A program made the position numbers and the translations under genes. From a virus: a stretch of DNA of 64,000 nt. The first letter of the stretch is position 1. Each line of letters starts with the position of its first letter. Below, piece by piece: positions 47,702 through 57,696 of this stretch. The DNA lies in IMG/VR virus record IMGVR_UViG_3300025117_000032. One strand, written 5' to 3'. The notes under the pieces are model-generated. The model was not told the DNA's origin. It was given only the letters and a program-made list of their open reading frames with translations, and ran no database searches.

Positions 47702-48578
47702 TATAAACCCCCACTATTAGCCTTTCGAACTCCCCAAATGCCACATCTCTCTTCCACATATCTAGTTGGTGATCCCCAATGCTAGGGTAGCTTGATCCAC
47801 AAATCAAACCATAAACATCATTCAATGCTTTCAACAAATGATCATCATCCGAAAAATATTTTGCTGTTCCTTGAAACACATCAACCATTGGTTCTATTGA
47901 TCTAACCATCGACCAAGTATTAAGCAACGTAGACTCTATTGCTGGAAGACCCAAACCCTCCCCAATTGATGGCATGATGGTTAATTTTGAAGATGCTATA
48001 GATGCAACCAACACTTCCTTTGGCATATATCCCATAACCTTTATTTGCTTATGCTTTGGAATGATGGGGCTCTCTGGCCCGCATAACCAATATAACCATC
48101 CAGCTTTTTCAAAATCTGAATCAATGAATGCTTTAGCTGCCACATCTAGTTTCTTTCCAGGATCACCCAATCTACAAAACGAAATAATTCTGTTTTTCCT
48201 TGGTATCCCCCTTAGATCGTCAACCATTTCAGAGGAAACTTGACTTGGGTAATAAAACATACCAGCATCTATTCCTCTTTCTTTCAGTTGGTAAATAACC
48301 TTTTTAGAAATAGCTGTAACCTTTGTGGCTCTCTTGCAAAAAGATTGCACATAGTTTTCTATCTCTGGGTTGCCACCCAACCACTCTGAAAAGTCAAGGA
48401 CATTAGCAATGACAATCTTTCTTTCCAAATGCCGCTCATTCAATCTCCAATTCCCTGGATCACACTGAAAGATAACATCGGCTTCATCTGCATTAGATAC
48501 AATGTCAAATTTTGACACTTTTTCATAATCACCAACCCACCCCCAAGGTCCGCGAAAACCTTCTATGTATAGTTTCAT
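47685..48578 (-). CDS. Glycosyltransferase family 4
   Basis: MPSIGEGLGLPAIES. Confidence 0.8.
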   Translation of the reverse strand: MKLYIEGFRGPWGWVGDYEKVSKFDIVSNADEADVIFQCDPGNWRLNERHLERKIVIANVLDFSEWLGGNPEIENYVQSFCKRATKVTAISKKVIYQLKERGIDAGMFYYPSQVSSEMVDDLRGIPRKNRIISFCRLGDPGKKLDVAAKAFIDSDFEKAGWLYWLCGPESPIIPKHKQIKVMGYMPKEVLVASIASSKLTIMPSIGEGLGLPAIESTLLNTWSMVRSIEPMVDVFQGTAKYFSDDDHLLKALNDVYGLICGSSYPSIGDHQLDMWKRDVAFGEFERLIVGVYNDYRS

Positions 48579-49309
48579 TGTAGATAATACTTTTCAATTT
48601 GCTCCAACACTCTTGGGGGAACATCCTCAAGATTATCTGGGTTAGATTCCCATAGTTTGTTTCTGACAACGAACCAATTTTCCCCATATTCTTTTAGGGA
48701 CTTTCCATCACAGTTATCACTATCGGCAAACTTGATTCTATCTCTACCCTTTGTCCTAAGATAAGACTCACTTCTTATGTGCCCAAAATGAATAATACTC
48801 CATGGTAATAAAACGCACTTGTCTTCTCTCTTTACAGAAAGGGTTTCGTCAACCAATTTCCCATTCATCTTTATCCCAGAAGTCATATCAATAACCCTAT
48901 ATTGATAATCTGGATAGCCAATCTTGTTGTACTTATTGTGTGACCCCTGCAAATTAAATCTCTCCAAAATCCCAACCTTGGAACCAGAGGCACACATCAT
49001 TTTTACAATACAATCATTTGGCATCTCTTCAATGATTTCATCTGATCCCATGTACAAACAAAACCCTTCGTTAGACATTGCAATTGCTCTGTTCCATTGA
49101 GATGAAAAATCATCAAACTTGTGAACCAAAAGATTTACGCTTGGGTGCTTTGGTTTGAAAGCTATAACAAACTCCAATGTTCCATCTTCGTTTACTGTAT
49201 CACAAACAACATTGACTTCCGAGAAGTTGTCCATTGCCCACTCTAACCACATTGGAAGTGTGTCCATACCATTTTTTACTATCGTGCATACAGAAACATT
49301 ATCCTGCAT
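48575..49309 (-). CDS. Glycosyltransferase family 2-like
   Basis: SVCTIVKN, DDFSSQWN, GSDE, YPDYQYR, IIHFGH. Confidence 0.75.
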   Translation of the reverse strand: MQDNVSVCTIVKNGMDTLPMWLEWAMDNFSEVNVVCDTVNEDGTLEFVIAFKPKHPSVNLLVHKFDDFSSQWNRAIAMSNEGFCLYMGSDEIIEEMPNDCIVKMMCASGSKVGILERFNLQGSHNKYNKIGYPDYQYRVIDMTSGIKMNGKLVDETLSVKREDKCVLLPWSIIHFGHIRSESYLRTKGRDRIKFADSDNCDGKSLKEYGENWFVVRNKLWESNPDNLEDVPPRVLEQIEKYYLQ

Positions 49310-52152: not shown

Positions 52153-53036
52153 TGTAAAATCTCCCTGGCACAATCTATCACACGGTTTGGTTTCACCATG
52201 CTGCAACTGTTTGGGTTGAAAAACGATTTACCATTCTTGTTTTTTGGCTCAAATGCCATTGGGTTTTCAGTATGCCCCTTTACCCTATGGTATGTTAGAA
52301 TGTGAATAGCTGGCATTGAATACGCCCCAATGATCCACATTGCGCCAGAATCAGAACCAATTACCAAGTTACACTCTAACGCCAACCGAATTTGGTCAAA
52401 TAAAGATGTGTTGGTGTGTCTCTTTGTTACACCCGCAATAGTTGGCTCTGTGATCCAACCAAAGTGGTGGACATCATACTCTTTCAACCCAGAAATAACC
52501 GCTTCCCACCACTCGACTGTTGGGGATCTACTTGGTTCTGACCCATAATGTGCAAATGGAAAAATGGCAATACTTTTTTTCTTGGGAGCGTTGATTACCT
52601 CCAAGTTAGAGTACCCATGGTTTTCTGGGATATGAAGTGTAGAGATATCAACCCACCATTTTGTAAGAGTTGGGTATTGCTTAGATTCTGGAATGGTATC
52701 CCATATGCCAGCCATTCTAAAGTTCTGCTCAACGCTACTAATTTTATTGAACCAAAACAGATCATCTACCGAAGGGGCCTCATTAATTTGAATGTCACAA
52801 GATTCCTTCAAAGCTTTGTCGTTACTTCCAAGACTTTCCCAGCCCTCCGTAATATAGATTTTGTCTATGTGTTTTTGTGATATATAAAGTGGAGCAGCCT
52901 GGGAATTTTTTCTGTGGATTACCCAATTAACATAGCTGTCTTTGTGTTGTTCTTTGATGTAATCCAAAATAGTTAAACCTATTATTGTGTCACCTATGAT
53001 GCCCGCTCGTATGCCCCAAATTTTAACATTGCTCAT
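52149..53036 (-). CDS. Glycosyltransferase family 9-like
   Basis: AGIIGDTI, IGSDSGAMWI.GAY. Confidence 0.7.
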   Translation of the reverse strand: MSNVKIWGIRAGIIGDTIIGLTILDYIKEQHKDSYVNWVIHRKNSQAAPLYISQKHIDKIYITEGWESLGSNDKALKESCDIQINEAPSVDDLFWFNKISSVEQNFRMAGIWDTIPESKQYPTLTKWWVDISTLHIPENHGYSNLEVINAPKKKSIAIFPFAHYGSEPSRSPTVEWWEAVISGLKEYDVHHFGWITEPTIAGVTKRHTNTSLFDQIRLALECNLVIGSDSGAMWIIGAYSMPAIHILTYHRVKGHTENPMAFEPKNKNGKSFFNPNSCSMVKPNRVIDCAREILQ

Positions 53037-53819
53037 ACTAACCCAAACCCCCATCCATCTAGGAACACATAATCACCAGGATCCTTGGGGTGGTTGAACA
53101 TTTTTTCCGCTGGTTTTTCATACCTATTGGGGTACACCACAACTTCTTTTCCAGCGAAAGCTGCTAGTGTCTTTCCCCATGAATCAGCACCTATGAATTT
53201 TGAACAGCTTCGTATTAACCTAAATGAATTCTCAAAGTCTGTCACCCACACATCACCAAAGGGTTCTCCTATTTTTTCCTTGTCCTTCTTTGACCCAATC
53301 AAACAAACTCTTCCATACCCAGAATACTCATTGGCAATGGAGTTTAACACAACCCTTGGAATCTCTTTGATCTTTGTTGGATCATCGGCACCACCAAAAG
53401 GCTGAATGACCGTCAACACTTGCTCATTTGGTATCGGGAAAGCCCATGCTGGGTATCGTTTCACTCCGTAGTAATCAAACACATTTGTCTTTCCACACTC
53501 AATCCAATCTTCAACATACATAAACTGCCTTGGTGTTACACCAGACCCAACAAAATTTGGGTGTTGAACAAGAAGCTCCCAAATAATCGGACTAGTGTGA
53601 AATGATGCTCTAGGGTAAAACCACCATTTTTTCACCTTTGGAAACTGCTTGGATATCTCTCTGATTGTGGTTACATTGTTGCACACAAAAACAACATCTG
53701 TGTGAGAATCAATGTTATCGTAAAATGTTGCCATCAGTAAAAAAAAAATCACCTAGACCACCTATTCCAAAATAGAATTTGTTCTCTACATTTGCTAACA
53801 ACCCTTGCATGAAACTCAT
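53033..53819 (-). CDS. Glycosyltransferase family 9-like, +1 frameshift in a T10 run
   Basis: ATG 53819 (ATGA overlap) gives ...FGIGGLGD, and +1 frame continues FFLLMATF...FIGADSW; T10 at 53739-53748. Confidence 0.65.
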
Positions 53820-54550
53820 TTTTTCTCCCATCGTTTTTTCTGGCTTAAACTCATTTTTAATCTTACTTCTTCTGATACTGGTTTCCTTTTTTTAGCAGCC
53901 TCACTCATTTTTTTTCTCTCATTTGGATCGGAAAAGCGTTTCTTAATTGCCACTGATAATGCTTCTCTATGAGATTTAGATTTTTTTCCCCCATATGAAT
54001 TTTTATACCACCCACGTTTGCTTTTTTCTAACCTTGTTTCACTTATCTTTTTCTTCGTTTTTTCACTATGTTCTTTTCCATACATTCCATTTGTTTCTCC
54101 TGTTAATCTAACTCCATACATTGGGTTGTTTTCTCCAGAATATTTCCCTTTGGCTTTTTCGCTCATTTTTTTCTTTGTTTCTTCGCTGTGTTTTTTTCCA
54201 TAAAATGGGTTTGTTTCTCCTGTTAATCTAACTCCATACATTGGGTTGTTTTCTCCAGGACTTGCCCCATCTCCACCAAGAGTTTGATTATATCCAGACC
54301 TAAATGTGCAATATTCTTCGATGTACTTTATTTCTAGTTTTCCAAGCTCCTCAAATAACAAAGTTTCATCAATTTTTTCTATGGAAAAATTTTCACTTCC
54401 ATATTTCCTGATTGCTCTTTGTATGGAACAATTGATTTTTAATGAGTTTGCATCATATATGTGTTTAAACCACCTTTTTTCCATAGTAAGAGTTGTTTTA
54501 CCAACATACTGTTTTCCATTTATTTTGTTTGTTATCAAATATATTACCAT
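53816..54550 (-). CDS. GIY-YIG homing endonuclease with NUMOD3 repeats
   Basis: VIYLITNKINGKQYVGKT, GYNQTLGGDG, NPFYGKKHSEETKKKMS. Confidence 0.9.
   Translation of the reverse strand: MVIYLITNKINGKQYVGKTTLTMEKRWFKHIYDANSLKINCSIQRAIRKYGSENFSIEKIDETLLFEELGKLEIKYIEEYCTFRSGYNQTLGGDGASPGENNPMYGVRLTGETNPFYGKKHSEETKKKMSEKAKGKYSGENNPMYGVRLTGETNGMYGKEHSEKTKKKISETRLEKSKRGWYKNSYGGKKSKSHREALSVAIKKRFSDPNERKKMSEAAKKRKPVSEEVRLKMSLSQKKRWEKK
54090..54258. repeat. 49-bp exact direct repeat, 120-bp period
   Basis: 54090-54138 = 54210-54258; encodes GENNPMYGVRLTGETN twice. Confidence 0.9.
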
Positions 54551-54598: not shown

Positions 54599-55210
54599 TC
54601 ATTGTATCTTTGCCCACCTTTCTTTTTCAAACTGGCAGGCTTGCATGTCCGCTTGGTGAAGTAATAATGCCAACCAAGTTTCCTTGTGTGCATAGGGTTT
54701 GTTTTCTGGGGTGTATTGCCCATCGTGAATAATAATGGCTTGGTATTCTTCATCGGTAAGCTTTACACCAAAGTCTGTTAGGAGTTTTACGGATCTGATT
54801 GCTGTGCCAAGATATATAAGACTCTCATTATGCTCATACATCATCCCAAGCTTTTCTCTGTGCCACTGTGATTCATTGGGGAGGAAGTAATCTTCATTGA
54901 CCGTACCAACCTTTCCCAAATCATGAAACAGCCCACAGACAATGATTGAATCTTGGCTAATGTTTTTCTTGTTTGCCATAGTTGAAAGATTGGAATACAC
55001 CCTCATTGAGTGTTCCAACAACCCACCTGGGAAACAGTTGTGGTATTCTAGTCTGTTCGATGCTGGGGCAACAAAAAACCTGTTCCCAATCTCTGCCATC
55101 AAGTTCTCGATAGCAATCAGATTTTCAGTATTCTTTATCCCCTTGACAATCTCCGTGAATTTTTCAGATAGCTCTATGATTCTGCTATCTTCCAACCTAA
55201 ACTCTTTCAT
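54599..55210 (-). CDS. HD-domain phosphohydrolase (YhaM/Cbf1-like)
   Basis: APAS...HNCFPGGLLEHS, LFHDLGKVG, IIIHDG, LHQAD. Confidence 0.85.
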   Translation of the reverse strand: MKEFRLEDSRIIELSEKFTEIVKGIKNTENLIAIENLMAEIGNRFFVAPASNRLEYHNCFPGGLLEHSMRVYSNLSTMANKKNISQDSIIVCGLFHDLGKVGTVNEDYFLPNESQWHREKLGMMYEHNESLIYLGTAIRSVKLLTDFGVKLTDEEYQAIIIHDGQYTPENKPYAHKETWLALLLHQADMQACQFEKERWAKIQ

Positions 55211-55279: not shown

Positions 55280-55984
55280 TTATAGATAAACCCAATCTTT
55301 CCATTTTTTTGTTTTTGACTTTAATCTATTACTAATTGTCATTCTGGTAACACCAAACACCTTGCTTGCTTCATCTAAAGAATCAAACTGTCTACAACCA
55401 ACAACAAATGACTTATGTAGTTTGTGATTTTTACCACGCATTTTATCTGAAAACGATTCTCTATCTCTTTTTTCCCAGGATTTAGAAATCCCCCTGGATT
55501 GTTTTACTTTGAACTCTAGGCTCTCCATTATTCTTTTTTGTTTGTGCCTAAATTCACTATTTCCCCATAACTCGTTCATTATCTCTCTTGCCCTATTTTT
55601 TCTTTTTGGGGTGTTTTGTAATTTCTTTTGCGCTTCACACAATCTTTTTTTTGTCTCTGGACTATTCATCCTTAATTTGTGTTTAGTTTTTGCTTCGTTT
55701 GACCATTCTCTTCCACTAATTCCCCCTGTTTCTAGGTTGTATGTGTCTCTGCGAAAAACCCACTTGTGGTCAACATATTTTTCTTCTTCAATCATTTCTT
55801 CGTATGAAAACAACTCAACCAATATCTCCCTACTAAAGTTTTGTTTTCCATATTTTCGGATTGCTTTTGTAAGCAACACCCCTGACCCCAAATACCCATC
55901 ATTGAGATTTTTTGTTTTATGAACGCCCCTGTATTTTTTTCCATTTATCAAGTTTGTTGTTTCATAAAGAATGTAATACATCAT
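55280..55984 (-). CDS. GIY-YIG homing endonuclease (Seg-like) with C-terminal HTH
   Basis: YILYETTNLINGKKYRGVHKT..LNDGYLGSG; TYNLETGG; FDSLDEASK. Confidence 0.9.
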   Translation of the reverse strand: MMYYILYETTNLINGKKYRGVHKTKNLNDGYLGSGVLLTKAIRKYGKQNFSREILVELFSYEEMIEEEKYVDHKWVFRRDTYNLETGGISGREWSNEAKTKHKLRMNSPETKKRLCEAQKKLQNTPKRKNRAREIMNELWGNSEFRHKQKRIMESLEFKVKQSRGISKSWEKRDRESFSDKMRGKNHKLHKSFVVGCRQFDSLDEASKVFGVTRMTISNRLKSKTKKWKDWVYL

Positions 55985-57131
55985 GTTGAAAGTATTTTTC
56001 TATACCACTCACACCTTTCATTTGTAACATGCTCCAATGAATATTTTGGGTATACCAACTTATACAAATTTTCTGACAACTCTTTTCTCATTGCATCATC
56101 TAGTATCAGTTGCCGAATGTATTTGTGCCATAGCTTATGGTTTTTCCTTGGGTTGACCAACAACGCATTCTCCCTATGAGTTAACAACTGCTTGTAGACA
56201 TACAAATCAGATGCAATCAACGCTTTTTTGCACATACCAGTTTCAATTATCTTCAATTCAGACTTGCACTCATTGAATGTGTGTTCATCTAGCGGTGCCA
56301 AGCAAATGTCCACATGCTTATAGTGGTTTCCATATTGAGTTATGGGAAGTGTTGTCCTTCTTACATACTGTTCTGGTGTTGCCTTACCATTGTCGTTGAA
56401 TATGGCTTCAAATTTGTTCCATATGGACTCTTCTGGGGTTATTTTCCTTGTTCTTTCCTCTTTGGTTAGGGGATGTAATTCAGTAACAGTTCCCCTTGTG
56501 TCATATCCACACATAACAACCTGAATCTTACTAGCAATCTCCTTATCATTGAACAACACATTGAAAGTGCCCTTGATTTTGTCCAAATCTCTCTCATGAC
56601 TTGAGCCACCAATCCAACCAACCCTAACTCTATCTGATTCTGTGGTTGGGTTTTGCCACATCTTCAAATTGGGATCAATAGCATTTGGTATGATGTGAAC
56701 ATTTTTGTTTATGGTCCTTCTTATGTGTTCTGCATAGATTTCTGTGGTTGTTGTAACCCAATCAGCGCACCTTAGATTTTCAATGATTTGGTGATGGATA
56801 CCCTTCGCCACAACCATGTGATAAGCTGGGTGCCCAAAAAACGGCAGCCAGAAGTCGTCAATATCAGAAACAACAATCGCACCGGCTGTGCGAAATTTAT
56901 CAGCCCATAGTGGGGTTGTTTCAGGTTCGGCGATGCGTCTGTGATAGTGGACAATATCAAACTCCCCTATATCGTCCTCTGTTATTGGTTGCATTAGTCT
57001 AATGTCAACCTCAAACTCTTCCCCATGGTTTTTTTGTATCTCTTGTGCAACCCAAATTGATCGGTAAGCTAATAGTGCCCAACACCATAAGAATCGCTGG
57101 GTATGATTAAAATTCTAATTTTGTTGGGCAC
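55981..57131 (-). CDS. Glycosyltransferase (GT-B) interrupted by an 8-nt stop-containing gap
   Basis: GTG 57131 gives MPNKIRILIIPSDSYGVGHY-[TAG CT TAC]-RSIWVAQEIQKNHGEEFEVDIRL, joining in frame to 55981..56994 (DIDDFW, IPNAID, GWIGGSSH, FNECKSELKIIE). Confidence 0.8.
57064..57074 (-). other. Putative translational bypass element TAT-TAG-CT-TAC
   Basis: Synonymous Tyr take-off and landing codons flank the stop; an 8-nt skip restores the frame. Confidence 0.6.
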
Positions 57132-57135
57132 TATT
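57071..57135. repeat. 14-bp perfect inverted repeat spanning the start codon to the coding gap
   Basis: aatagtgcccaaca (57071-57084) / tgttgggcactatt (57122-57135). Confidence 0.9.
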
Positions 57136-57138
57136 TGA

Positions 57139-57696
57139 TCACCCACCTTTAATGAATCTGTCATATCTTTCATATAACTCTTCTTTCGTTATTGAACACT
57201 TTGCGTGCTTCGAACTGTTTTCCCCACGATATATTATGCTAAGATTGATAACGCAACCAATTATATGCGGGGGAACATCTTGTTTAAACCCCTCTAGGAC
57301 ACTAAAATTATGATCCAATGTGTATCCAGATGGTTGCAATATGTGTTTTGTTTGGATATATTCACTGTAATTTTCCAGTAAAGATATATCGGAATGCTTT
57401 GTGTACAAATTTACCAACTGTTTATATGCTTCCCATTTTGTTTTTGCAGAAAGTGGTGTCCAATATCCAGTTGACTCATGGTGGACCCTTATGCTATCTC
57501 TATTCTTTTCGTAAAAATTTTTTGATGCATCTGCGATTTTCATTAAACCAGGGTGGCATTCTTTTGTTAAACCTTTATTCCATGTGTCTAATCCAGAATG
57601 AGCGCAAGGTCTGCATTTCCAATTTTTATGCCGCCTTGTCCAATATCTTGGAAAAACTCTAATTAACCCACAGCCAACACAAGTTGCAGTATACAT
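57139..57696 (-). CDS. Free-standing HNH homing endonuclease
   Basis: CVGC..CRPC; WNKGLTKE; LDHNFSVLEGF...NLSIIYRGENSSK. Confidence 0.75.
   Translation of the reverse strand: MYTATCVGCGLIRVFPRYWTRRHKNWKCRPCAHSGLDTWNKGLTKECHPGLMKIADASKNFYEKNRDSIRVHHESTGYWTPLSAKTKWEAYKQLVNLYTKHSDISLLENYSEYIQTKHILQPSGYTLDHNFSVLEGFKQDVPPHIIGCVINLSIIYRGENSSKHAKCSITKEELYERYDRFIKGG

Follow-up and report, generated by a model that had tools for sequence, protein, structure and literature searches.

To our knowledge, programmed translational bypassing has so far been found only in T4 gene 60 and its homologs and in yeast mitochondria. In T4 gene 60 a stop codon follows the take-off codon, the codons for take-off and landing match, and a 5' stem-loop is thought to propel the first steps (bioRxiv 10.1101/2022.08.31.505936, Manning & Atkins). 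The 50-nt gap shields against MobA (bioRxiv 10.1101/2022.08.31.505936). The mitochondrial byps of Magnusiomyces capitatus comprise 81 inserts of 27-55 nt (summarised in bioRxiv 10.1101/2022.08.31.505936). Shorter natural counterparts have long been presumed, and none is known (PMC5009743). In E. coli stop-hop constructs, a stop stands between matched codons, with one residue specified by 9 nt (Atkins et al. 2016, PMC5009743). The short stop-hops known in E. coli are inefficient (~1%) and synthetic or incidental, and no natural use of in-frame stop hopping is known (PMC5009743). Finally, prfB (RF2) uses a +1 frameshift at CUU UGA (PMC6815119).

Here we describe a locus in 64,000 nt of viral DNA (IMG/VR record IMGVR_UViG_3300025117_000032; this whole stretch is called the window), whose sequence is known from DNA contigs only, out of groundwater and soil metagenomes. 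Sequence comparison makes it likely that a glycosyltransferase gene of this phage uses short programmed translational bypassing. As at T4 gene 60/MobA, but with another architecture, this would keep an insert that protects against the endonuclease from doing harm.

The parallels with T4 gene 60/MobA are several. An early non-coding insert lies within a conserved motif of an essential-looking enzyme gene, a stop codon directly follows the take-off codon, and one tRNA would serve for both take-off and landing. Directly upstream stands a free-standing endonuclease gene of the HNH type (here putative, with a weak fold assignment), the cassette brings an N-terminal extension with it, and lineages lose the endonuclease step by step but retain the gap. 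By analogy, the gap here presumably shields the target site. In contrast, gaps are 5-12 nt long here and 50 nt there, and the host gene encodes a GT-B glycosyltransferase instead of a topoisomerase. An A-site take-off stem-loop with the take-off codon on its 5' side, as in gene 60, was not found at the glycosyltransferase gaps, because gaps of 5-12 nt are too short to hold one; they have no space for a mini-SD or an A-site hairpin either. Here the take-off codon forms the 3' end of a long-range stem that has its other arm at the gene start, three alternative junctions are used, and some alleles, such as L009 and L176, have two gaps. The endonuclease family here is without a Pfam model, and no sequence homology with the gene 60 cassette is evident.

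The locus shares with the E. coli stop-hops a short distance, a stop in the A site and a peptidyl-tRNA that would re-pair with a matched codon a few nt downstream. A phosphoesterase gap of the same window (CTT TGA AGG CTT) and inserts of the type GGT TAA nnn GGT are particularly alike, with a skip of 9 nt here and not 6. Unlike the stop-hops, the elements described here are natural and conserved, are found both in and out of frame, and have a dedicated upstream stem. The byps of M. capitatus are likewise short, mobile and numerous, spread over several genes within a single genome and made harmless by bypassing, and tolerate imperfect take-off/landing matches; however, they belong to a eukaryotic organelle, are longer and GC-cluster-like, have an unassigned sense codon in place of the stop and lack a link to homing endonucleases. 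Like prfB, the locus would combine a forward slip at an A-site stop with an RNA helix just behind the ribosome (SD:anti-SD in prfB), and the phosphoesterase take-off is the same CUU UGA. Yet prfB shifts by +1 onto an overlapping codon with the help of rRNA pairing, whereas here the hop would cover 5-12 nt with the help of an mRNA-mRNA stem.

An 8-nt gap in a glycosyltransferase gene

The minus-strand frame from GTG 57131 (or ATG 57173) reads ...PSDSYGVGHY (KIRILIIPSDSYGVGHY) and then meets the stop TAG (Table 1). Reading from 57063 gives RSIWVAQEIQKNHGEEFEVDIRLMQP... (RSIW...), which is continuous with ORF 55981-56994 once 57071-57064 are skipped. Intact homologs (~380 aa) read ...PSDPFGVGHYRSIWVAQEIQKNHS..., and in the alignment GVGHYRSIW is contiguous across the junction. 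Since these homologs read through the junction ungapped, the window carries exactly 8 extra nt. The earlier note on this DNA had placed an 8-nt gap after TAT and restored the frame at RSIW by skipping 57064-57071. Its coordinates proved exact, and the check that it had proposed, an alignment to uninterrupted homologs across GHY/RSIW, came out ungapped. Its interpretation of the gap is supported; the homing-endonuclease context and the N-terminal extension are additions to it. We rejected an assembly error because the identical 8 nt recur in contigs of independent samples (L002-L004; runs X1, X4, X7).

Table 1. Features of the glycosyltransferase locus and of the second gap in the window
Feature	Position	Strand	Basis
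Take-off codon TAT (Tyr), last residue of ...GVGHY	57072..57074	-	sequence
8-nt coding gap TAGCTTAC	57064..57071	-	no counterpart in intact homologs
Gap parts: stop TAG; CT; landing codon TAC	57071-57069; 57068-57067; 57066-57064	-	
Resume codon CGA (57063-57061) and remaining glycosyltransferase, to stop TGA (55983-55981)	55981..57063	-	translation
Stem 5' arm AAUAGUGCCCAACA, over the GTG start codon	57122..57135	-	fold, duplex and inverted-repeat analyses
Stem 3' arm UGUUGGGCACUAUU, ends on take-off codon and first stop base	57071..57084	-	
N-terminal extension of interrupted allele, ATG 57173 to alternative GTG start (57131-57129)	57132..57173	-	
185-aa HNH-like (His-Me finger) putative free-standing homing endonuclease	57139..57696	-	ORF, invariant residues, weak fold matches
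GIY-YIG homing endonuclease gene, overlaps glycosyltransferase stop (ATGA)	55280..55984	-	PHROG 314 homing endonuclease, E 7e-41
Metallophosphoesterase micro-gap CTT TGA AGG CTT	40134..40145	-	sequence and homolog N-termini
Micro-gap parts: take-off CTT; TGA AGG; landing CTT; resume TTC	40145-40143;; 40136-40134; 40133	-	

Inserts of related phages follow common rules

The window and ten other lineages carry 13 different inserts of 5-12 nt, located at three junctions within five codons (G^V, G^H and Y^R in G^VG^HY^R). Besides the 8 nt of the window, the lengths include 5, 7, 9, 11 and 12 nt. Such a recurrence of inserts at one spot is more than chance. All 13 begin with a stop codon, directly after the take-off codon (chance from base composition P ~1e-15; ~6e-11 if only 9 events are independent). 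The landing triplet closes the insert, next to the resume codon. It agrees with what the take-off codon requires at two or more of three positions in 13 of 13 inserts (P ~1e-8), and in seven it matches at the first two bases. At site 1, where the inserts show the pattern GGT TAA nnn GGT, the landing is GGN in six cases out of six, while at sites 2 and 3 it is often near-cognate only (GAU or CGC for Gly tRNA, UGC or AAC for Tyr).

A long-range stem ends on the take-off codon

The perfect 14-bp helix between the two arms has a duplex energy of -23.0 kcal/mol (z -6.8 against shuffles), and the fold of 57050-57150 reaches -37.4 kcal/mol (z -5.65). An imperfect helix extends on through the gap to 57063, pairing with the SD region; the inverted-repeat arms are 57063-57094 and 57112-57143. 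Every one of the 13 inserts has a 9-16 bp stem that ends at most 2 nt from the take-off codon (-15.4 to -23.6 kcal/mol). The corresponding value in 56 intact alleles, taken as the best over the three sites, has a mean of -8.6 and in no allele falls under -13.8 (Mann-Whitney p 9e-7). The hairpin that the earlier note had mentioned for the window recurs in every interrupted lineage and not in the intact ones, and the re-pairing of the Tyr tRNA from UAU to UAC proposed there fits the landing rule, the hop being what we infer from the comparison.

The 5' arm is encoded by the N-terminal extension of the interrupted alleles, which is conserved. This extension includes an SD-like GGTGGGTGATC (57147-57137); ATG 57173 overlaps the 3' end of the HNH-like gene, whose stop TGA (57141-57139) falls within the hairpin's 5' half. 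All interrupted lineages but L092, where the frame is broken, have an upstream ATG in frame and an AGGTGAT-like sequence in the extension. Intact alleles begin M-x-K-I-R. The stems of the window and L095 differ in two compensated pairs. One reservation is that the 5' arm of every lineage might in principle have been templated afresh, and not selected as a partner. A genome-wide scan for a stop and a short gap with a strong upstream duplex was noisy, with the glycosyltransferase junction as its strongest hit (-23.0). The second-ranked junction (window 48531, -21.1) was rejected as a normal gene start with its own hairpin.

We propose the following mechanism. A ribosome that has reached UAU, the Tyr take-off codon, would find UAG in its A site and decode it slowly. 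The 14 nt ending at the take-off codon would then pair with a segment ~40 nt upstream (start codon or N-terminal extension) that is already outside the ribosome. The helix zipping behind the ribosome would strip the take-off codon from peptidyl-tRNA-Tyr and draw the mRNA forward. The tRNA would re-pair at UAC 8 nt downstream and decoding would restart at CGA, giving a joined product ...GVGHY-RSIW..., as in intact homologs. Together with the 5'-arm-encoding extension and the HNH-like gene upstream, the gap would make up a single mobile cassette, in which the likely role of the gap is to break the endonuclease target (presumably the conserved GVGHYR-coding DNA) without killing the gene. The sequences themselves show the gap and its recurrence, the two insert rules, the stem, the link to the endonuclease and the intact frames; from these patterns we infer that ribosomes hop and how efficiently, that the stem drives them and what the endonuclease targets. 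Some points count against the hop. Complete helix formation takes ~12 nt of movement, which is above most hop lengths, the proposed stem drive has no known direct precedent for a take-off codon on the 3' side, and strong 5' hairpins are present at other gene starts of this genome too (window 48531). So do the low efficiency of the short E. coli stop-hops, the near-cognate landings common at sites 2 and 3 and the weak fold match of the endonuclease.

Selection on the interrupted genes and decay of the neighbouring endonuclease

With the inserts taken out, all interrupted genes read as open frames of ~377-387 codons. Between lineages pS is ~0.8 and pN ~0.1-0.25; since synonymous sites are saturated between all lineages, these values say only that pN is much below pS and do not amount to dN/dS. 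Terminal branches of interrupted alleles are no longer than those of intact alleles. In the 13-20 codons 5' of the gap the protein motif is kept through synonymous changes, including TCN/AGY serine switches; judged by its codons, the short upstream fragment is under purifying selection.

The family of the 185-aa HNH-like protein shows an N-terminal CxxC...CxxC and invariant D128, H129, N151 and N160. Searches of Pfam (E<0.1), PHROG and PDB sequences gave no annotation for this ORF. Its top Foldseek matches are mostly HNH nucleases but weak, with E 0.6 or worse, and VIA-align gave a weak match (Z 4.5) to the Gme HNH nickase. The gene is polymorphic (present/absent) at one fixed site, between the orf119 homolog and the glycosyltransferase. 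Among the 11 interrupted lineages it is full in five, cut by the contig edge in one, a remnant in three (one weak: L096, E 0.001) and absent in two. Intact relatives have it in none of six cases, against 8 of the 11 interrupted lineages (9 with the weak remnant; Fisher 0.007, counted as 8/11). Since the gene is full, remnant or absent among interrupted lineages, whose glycosyltransferase frames stay open, the endonuclease decays and the interrupted glycosyltransferase does not.

These observations bear on another reading. It takes the inserts for scars of repair or for resistance mutations that were selected because they destroy the endonuclease target, and the glycosyltransferase for a dead or dispensable pseudogene. 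In its favour, the inserts adjoin a mobile endonuclease gene, several other glycosyltransferases are encoded in the same phage, and some insert events must be recent, because some interrupted and intact alleles are 92-95% identical. We nevertheless consider it unlikely, since the 11 lineages show no second lesion across ~380 codons while the adjoining endonuclease gene decays or is lost, and the short upstream fragment is under purifying selection. Moreover, the stop-first rule, the landing-triplet rule and the stem at the take-off codon in 13 of 13 inserts would have no reason in a pseudogene. Per-segment identity between intact and interrupted sisters gave a clear step, as a co-conversion signal, for P0005/L092 only, and other pairs were ambiguous.

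Frame changes at the inserts

The inserts change the frame by 0, +1 or +2. L006 and L092 have near-identical inserts, with a difference of 1 nt, and the downstream frame is kept in both. As far as the sequences tell, only frame-independent resumption would account for all the inserts and frame changes. Another type of recoding, either a -1/+2 frameshift upstream of the stop or readthrough of in-frame inserts, would change or add a few residues within the Gly loop. It is suggested by the fact that an 8-nt insert equals a -1 shift, that 17 open codons of the alternative frame precede RSIW and that 4 of the 13 inserts are in frame. We regard it as improbable. One mechanism would have to serve frame changes of 0, +1 and +2 and also double stops (TAA TGA, in the L005 insert), there is no slippery heptamer, and an upstream shift would scramble a motif whose zero-frame codons stay conserved up to the stop. 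Nor was a suppressor tRNA found among the 26 tRNAs of the phage. We rejected -1 frameshifting, readthrough and decoding by a phage suppressor tRNA (0/26), as well as re-initiation.

Fold of the glycosyltransferase

The glycosyltransferase, which has ~780 homologs, matches Pfam Glycos_transf_1 (PF00534) with 28.9 bits (cutoff 26.4). The AF2 model of an intact homolog, 71% identical (pLDDT 86.6), is GT-B/GT4-like with two Rossmann-like domains, and Foldseek relates it to MshA, PimA, BshA and PglA (E 1e-14). By this model, the glycosyltransferase has a GT-B fold and is GT4-like. The model has β1 at residues 5-10, the loop at 11-16 and α1 at 17-32; β1, the Gly-rich loop and α1 are complete only when both window pieces are joined. 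The annotated 337-aa ORF (ATG 56994) is the distal part only, and its start falls after β2 in the model, in agreement with the previous remark that this ORF is without the first β-strand and Gly loop. According to the model, a product from ATG 56994 would be without β1, α1 and β2 of the N-terminal Rossmann domain. A search at the nucleotide level gave nothing near among 50,697 phage records, and the best phage match at the protein level has 31% identity.

A short N-terminal peptide ending at the stop, with the body made by re-initiation near the gap or at ATG 56994 and working alone or with the peptide in trans, is very improbable in our opinion. It would agree with the 34-aa and 337-aa ORFs given by gene callers, with an RNase H-like case elsewhere in the genome in which an ATG lies 2 nt past the stop, and with the T4 topoisomerase, which functions as split subunits (bioRxiv 10.1101/2022.08.31.505936). 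However, there is no ATG, GTG or TTG at or near the resume codons (CGA, AGG, AGA, GTN other than GTG, CAT), and the first in-frame ATG is not conserved in homologs and is positioned past β2. It is also unlikely that a peptide of 13-34 aa gives β1 in trans.

Removal of the gap before translation, by hairpin-guided mRNA cleavage and ligation or through a DNA-level variant in part of the population, is hardly credible: the stem does end exactly at the 5' edge of the insert, and large phages of this kind often have RNA repair enzymes, but excision of 5-12 nt from bacterial mRNA has no known precedent, and the 3' boundary showed no conserved element. The 8 nt are present, free of indel variants, in every contig that covers the region (rare variants would escape contigs), and both the stop-first rule and the landing rule, with its fit to the tRNA, speak for the ribosome.

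A second gap and possible portable recoding modules

A second micro-gap lies in a metallophosphoesterase gene (Table 1). About 37 of the 41 listed homolog N-termini read a contiguous D-x-H-(L/F/W/Y)-x-H without a 3-residue insert; the other four are N-terminally truncated. This gap is just 3' of a GIY-YIG gene and an endonuclease-tail-like remnant ORF, and its stem is weak by the measure of the genome-wide scan (-9.4).

We lean, with some reserve, towards a wider proposal, that groundwater phages carry portable recoding modules (upstream complementary arm, take-off codon, stop, gap of 5-12 nt) that travel with homing endonucleases. Their short hops would be driven by refolding of the just-exited mRNA; one gene would have them at several of its junctions, and the genome in two or more genes. 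If true, no natural and selected family of short-range translational bypassing would precede these modules, which would also offer a simple natural test bed for bypassing driven by pairing of the exiting mRNA. The locus is already a natural variant set: its 13 gaps fall at three junctions, imply hops of several lengths and end in cognate as well as near-cognate landings. Because all the variants share a stem ending on the take-off codon, the mechanism is directly testable with small reporters. The logic of endonuclease self-protection by a translationally silent insert would also extend to a new endonuclease family and to new host genes.

Gene callers annotate the interrupted gene as ORFs of 34 aa and 337 aa. 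As they split or truncate genes of this type, phage annotations probably under-report them. A census of short N-terminal ORFs with the 48-aa read-through query gave no candidates. In the closest relative, P0003 (79% identical), a 34-aa ORF overlaps a 373-aa ORF that starts MNGHYRSIW, and this pair suggests yet another insert.

Results

On the minus strand, the sequence across the gap reads ...GGT GTT GGG CAC TAT TAG CT TAC CGA TCA ATT TGG.... The frame upstream of the gap translates to ...KIRILIIPSDSYGVGHY and then meets a stop; the frame starting at 57063 gives RSIWVAQEIQKNHGEEFEVDIRLMQP... and is continuous with the annotated 337-aa ORF (55981-56994), which occurs, identical, on 13 contigs. 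Among the 782 relatives of the glycosyltransferase obtained by protein search, close ones are about 380 aa long and run ungapped across the junction (e.g. MSDKIRILIVPSDPFGVGHYRSIWVAQEIQKNHS), so between HY and RS the window is longer by exactly 8 nt. Contigs of independent samples (L002-L004; runs X1, X4 and X7) carry the identical 8 nt, which rules out assembly error. The contiguous homologs and the independent samples thus confirm the claim of the earlier note that an 8-nt gap splits the N-terminal motif of this gene. The whole phage genome (C1, 151,986 bp) is represented only in metagenomes of groundwater and soil. Its 26 tRNA genes (C1 85277-103733) include tRNA-Gly(UCC); neither a suppressor tRNA nor a tRNA-Tyr was found among them.

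Coordinates of features in the window
Feature	Position	Strand	Basis
Take-off codon TAT	57074-57072	minus	sequence
Stop codon TAG	57071-57069	minus	sequence
Landing triplet TAC	57066-57064	minus	sequence
Resume codon CGA	57063-57061	minus	sequence
185-aa HNH-like ORF, upstream of glycosyltransferase	57139-57696		
Phosphoesterase in-frame interruption TGA AGG CTT after CTT	40134-40145	minus	

Contigs were fetched for close homologs, many with N-terminally truncated gene calls, and loci were surveyed from two collections. Ten further lineages have this motif interrupted by short inserts, which fall at three junctions spanning no more than five codons (G^V G^H Y^R); two of these lineages (L009 and L176) contain two inserts each. 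A stop codon stands at the start of 13/13 inserts, and in all 13 the final triplet is compatible with the take-off codon at two or more of the three positions (chance about 1e-8). The landing is a Gly codon in 6/6 cases at site 1, and near-cognate landings are present at sites 2 and 3. The lengths skipped are 5, 7, 8, 9, 11 and 12 nt, the frame changing by 0, +1 or +2. The near-identical inserts of L006 and L092 differ by one base, and the downstream frame is kept in both. Judging from these sequences, only a frame-independent resumption would explain the whole insert set.

Inserts by lineage (sites 1, 2 and 3 are junctions G^V, G^H and Y^R; hyphens set off take-off codon and landing triplet, and at site 2 the last triplet is the resume codon) and state of the upstream HNH-like gene
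Lineage	Site	Insert	HNH-like gene
Window	3	TAT-TAGCT-TAC	full length
L005	1	GGA-TAATGA-GGT	full length
L006	2	GGT-TAACT-GAT-CAT	full length
L009	1	GGT-TAACTA-GGT	absent
L009	3	TAT-TAGG-TGC	absent
L092	2	GGT-TAAATT-GAT-CAT	C-terminal remnant
L093	1	GGT-TAAGTTATT-GGT	cut by contig edge
L095	3	TAT-TG-AAC	full length
L096	1	GGT-TAATT-GGG	C-terminal remnant (weak, E 0.001)
L176	1	GGT-TAACT-GGT	C-terminal remnant
L176	3	TAT-TAGT-TGC	C-terminal remnant
L177	1	GGT-TAAAAAAT-GGT	absent
L178	2	GGT-TAGCTT-CGC-CAT	full length

In the closest relative, P0003 (contig of SRR22387838, 155 kb; 79% identical), a 34-aa ORF shares 4 nt with a 373-aa ORF beginning MNGHYRSIW, downstream of a 237-aa NUMOD3-bearing gene; this looks like a further insert, perhaps at a fourth junction.

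In the window, 57084-57071, a 14-nt stretch whose last four bases are TAT and the T of TAG, is complementary at every position to 57135-57122, an arm that covers the GTG start, and the region 57050-57150 folds at -37.4 kcal/mol (z -5.65). The same architecture is found at 13/13 take-off sites: a helix of 9-16 bp whose 3' arm ends at most 2 nt from the take-off codon and whose 5' arm lies at the gene start. Each of the two double-gap alleles has a pair of nested helices, one for each take-off. We computed the duplex energy of the 15 nt ending at the take-off codon against the 100 nt upstream. It ranges from -15.4 to -23.6 kcal/mol at the 13 take-off sites, whereas 56 distinct intact alleles (best of three equivalent sites) average -8.6 and never fall below -13.8 kcal/mol (Mann-Whitney p 9e-7 for the first 9 take-off sites only; the remaining four, measured separately, lie within the same range). 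The window and L095 are interrupted at the same site, and their upstream genes are 52% identical; their 3' arms differ at two positions, both synonymous and both compensated in the 5' arm. At ~48530-48650 (minus), a further strong hairpin (CCCCCAAG / CTTGGGGG; duplex energy -21 kcal/mol) extends across the 5' end of a different GT4-like gene, for which ATG 48576 is a normal start; this phage's glycosyltransferase genes may have strong 5' hairpins in general.

The 5' arm of the stem is encoded by an N-terminal extension. Intact alleles begin M-x-K-I-R, and interrupted alleles are 5-20 residues longer; with the exception of L092, whose frame is broken, all interrupted lineages have an in-frame ATG within the 3'-terminal part of the upstream ORF, together with a conserved AGGTGAT-like element in the extension. 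Candidate starts in the window are ATG 57173 and GTG 57131. The element is complementary to the 3' tail of 16S rRNA and lies at 57137-57147 in the window and in the same place in L009, L096, L176, L177 and L178. Since no start codon follows it in L096 and L177, it may do more than act as a ribosome-binding site.

The 185-aa ORF is a member of a family in which CxxC...CxxC is found N-terminally and the residues D-H...N...N are invariant. A search for a Pfam model for it found none, and its fold matches, though weak, are almost all HNH nucleases; with moderate confidence, we regard it as HNH-like. The gene is absent from 6/6 intact relatives, where an orf119 homolog abuts the glycosyltransferase. 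Gene or remnant goes with interruption (Fisher 0.007, scored as 8/11 interrupted lineages; 9 if the weak L096 remnant is counted), and this pattern of presence, remnant and absence is the usual homing endonuclease life cycle.

Discussion

From the sequence data, a short programmed hop is the best-supported reading. With the stop in the A site, the ribosome would stall; the helix would then zip behind it, taking the take-off codon off the peptidyl-tRNA, the mRNA would slide forward by 5-12 nt, the tRNA would re-pair with a cognate or near-cognate triplet, and decoding would resume. The hop's efficiency, the choice of start codon, what the stem does and which DNA the endonuclease targets are all inferred here.

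Other readings, together unlikely, are a pseudogene or scar, a different kind of recoding, split products, and excision of the gap from the RNA. As regards a pseudogene or scar, synonymous sites are saturated between lineages (pS ~0.8) and pN is 0.09-0.25. Terminal branches are not longer for interrupted than for intact alleles, which are interspersed in the tree, sister lineages using different sites. Synonymous changes in the codons 5' of the gap, including TCN/AGY serine switches, preserve the protein motif. Moreover, while the HNH-like gene decays, the adjoining interrupted glycosyltransferase shows no second lesion and its frame remains open over ~377-387 codons, which gives an internal control. 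As regards split products, the model of an intact homolog (71% identical, pLDDT 86.6) matches GT4 enzymes of GT-B fold (E 1e-14), with beta1 at 5-10, a loop at 11-16, alpha1 at 17-32 and beta2 at 37-41; a product starting at ATG 56994 is predicted to lack beta1-alpha1-beta2.

T4 gene 60 offers a known parallel to the proposed hop: a stop follows the take-off codon, the codons are matched, P-site re-pairing has some latitude, a 5' stem-loop is believed to drive the initial steps, and the gap protects from MobA (bioRxiv 10.1101/2022.08.31.505936; see also 10.1101/2024.12.09.627546). According to a review (PMC5009743), stop-hopping over short distances takes place in E. coli at low level, and natural counterparts shorter than gene 60 had been presumed to exist, but none are known. 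Unlike gene 60, the present gap is tiny and lacks a take-off stem-loop and mini-SD; instead, a long-range stem has the take-off codon at its 3' end, multiple junctions are used, and both the gene and the endonuclease family are different.

A phosphoesterase at 40178 is also interrupted, reading ...ADFHL, TGA, AGG, CTT, FHNNIIKYCNRPF, with CTT as identical take-off and landing codon and a weak upstream stem. In ~37 of the 41 homolog N-termini printed, D-x-H-(L/F/W/Y)-x-H is contiguous, without the 3 extra residues; the remaining four are cut short at the N-terminus. Just upstream of the phosphoesterase are a GIY-YIG gene (40571-41278) and a 41-aa ORF, an endonuclease-like remnant that resembles a C-terminal tail.

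Beyond the window's end, an RNase H/FEN-like gene (C1 ~1300-1500, plus) reads ...LLLVDFYN TAG GC ATG..., and an 11-bp stem ends there immediately ahead of the last sense codon. With an ATG 2 nt beyond the stop, a hop and coupled re-initiation are equally likely in this gene. Two GIY-YIG/NUMOD3 homing endonuclease genes (55280-55984 and 53816-54550, minus) flank an HD-domain gene (54599-55210). The former overlaps the glycosyltransferase stop via ATGA and is another inserted mobile gene, since the HD gene directly follows the glycosyltransferase in relatives. Directly after the latter lies a second glycosyltransferase-like gene (53715-53831 and 53033-53752, minus), whose N-terminus, ...FGIGGLGDFFF, resembles a heptosyltransferase Gly loop. 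Its frame is broken at a T10 run (~53737-53746), which might be an error or a site of slippage or phase variation; the resulting overlap of a 38-aa with a 239-aa ORF is also called in an independent assembly (L002).
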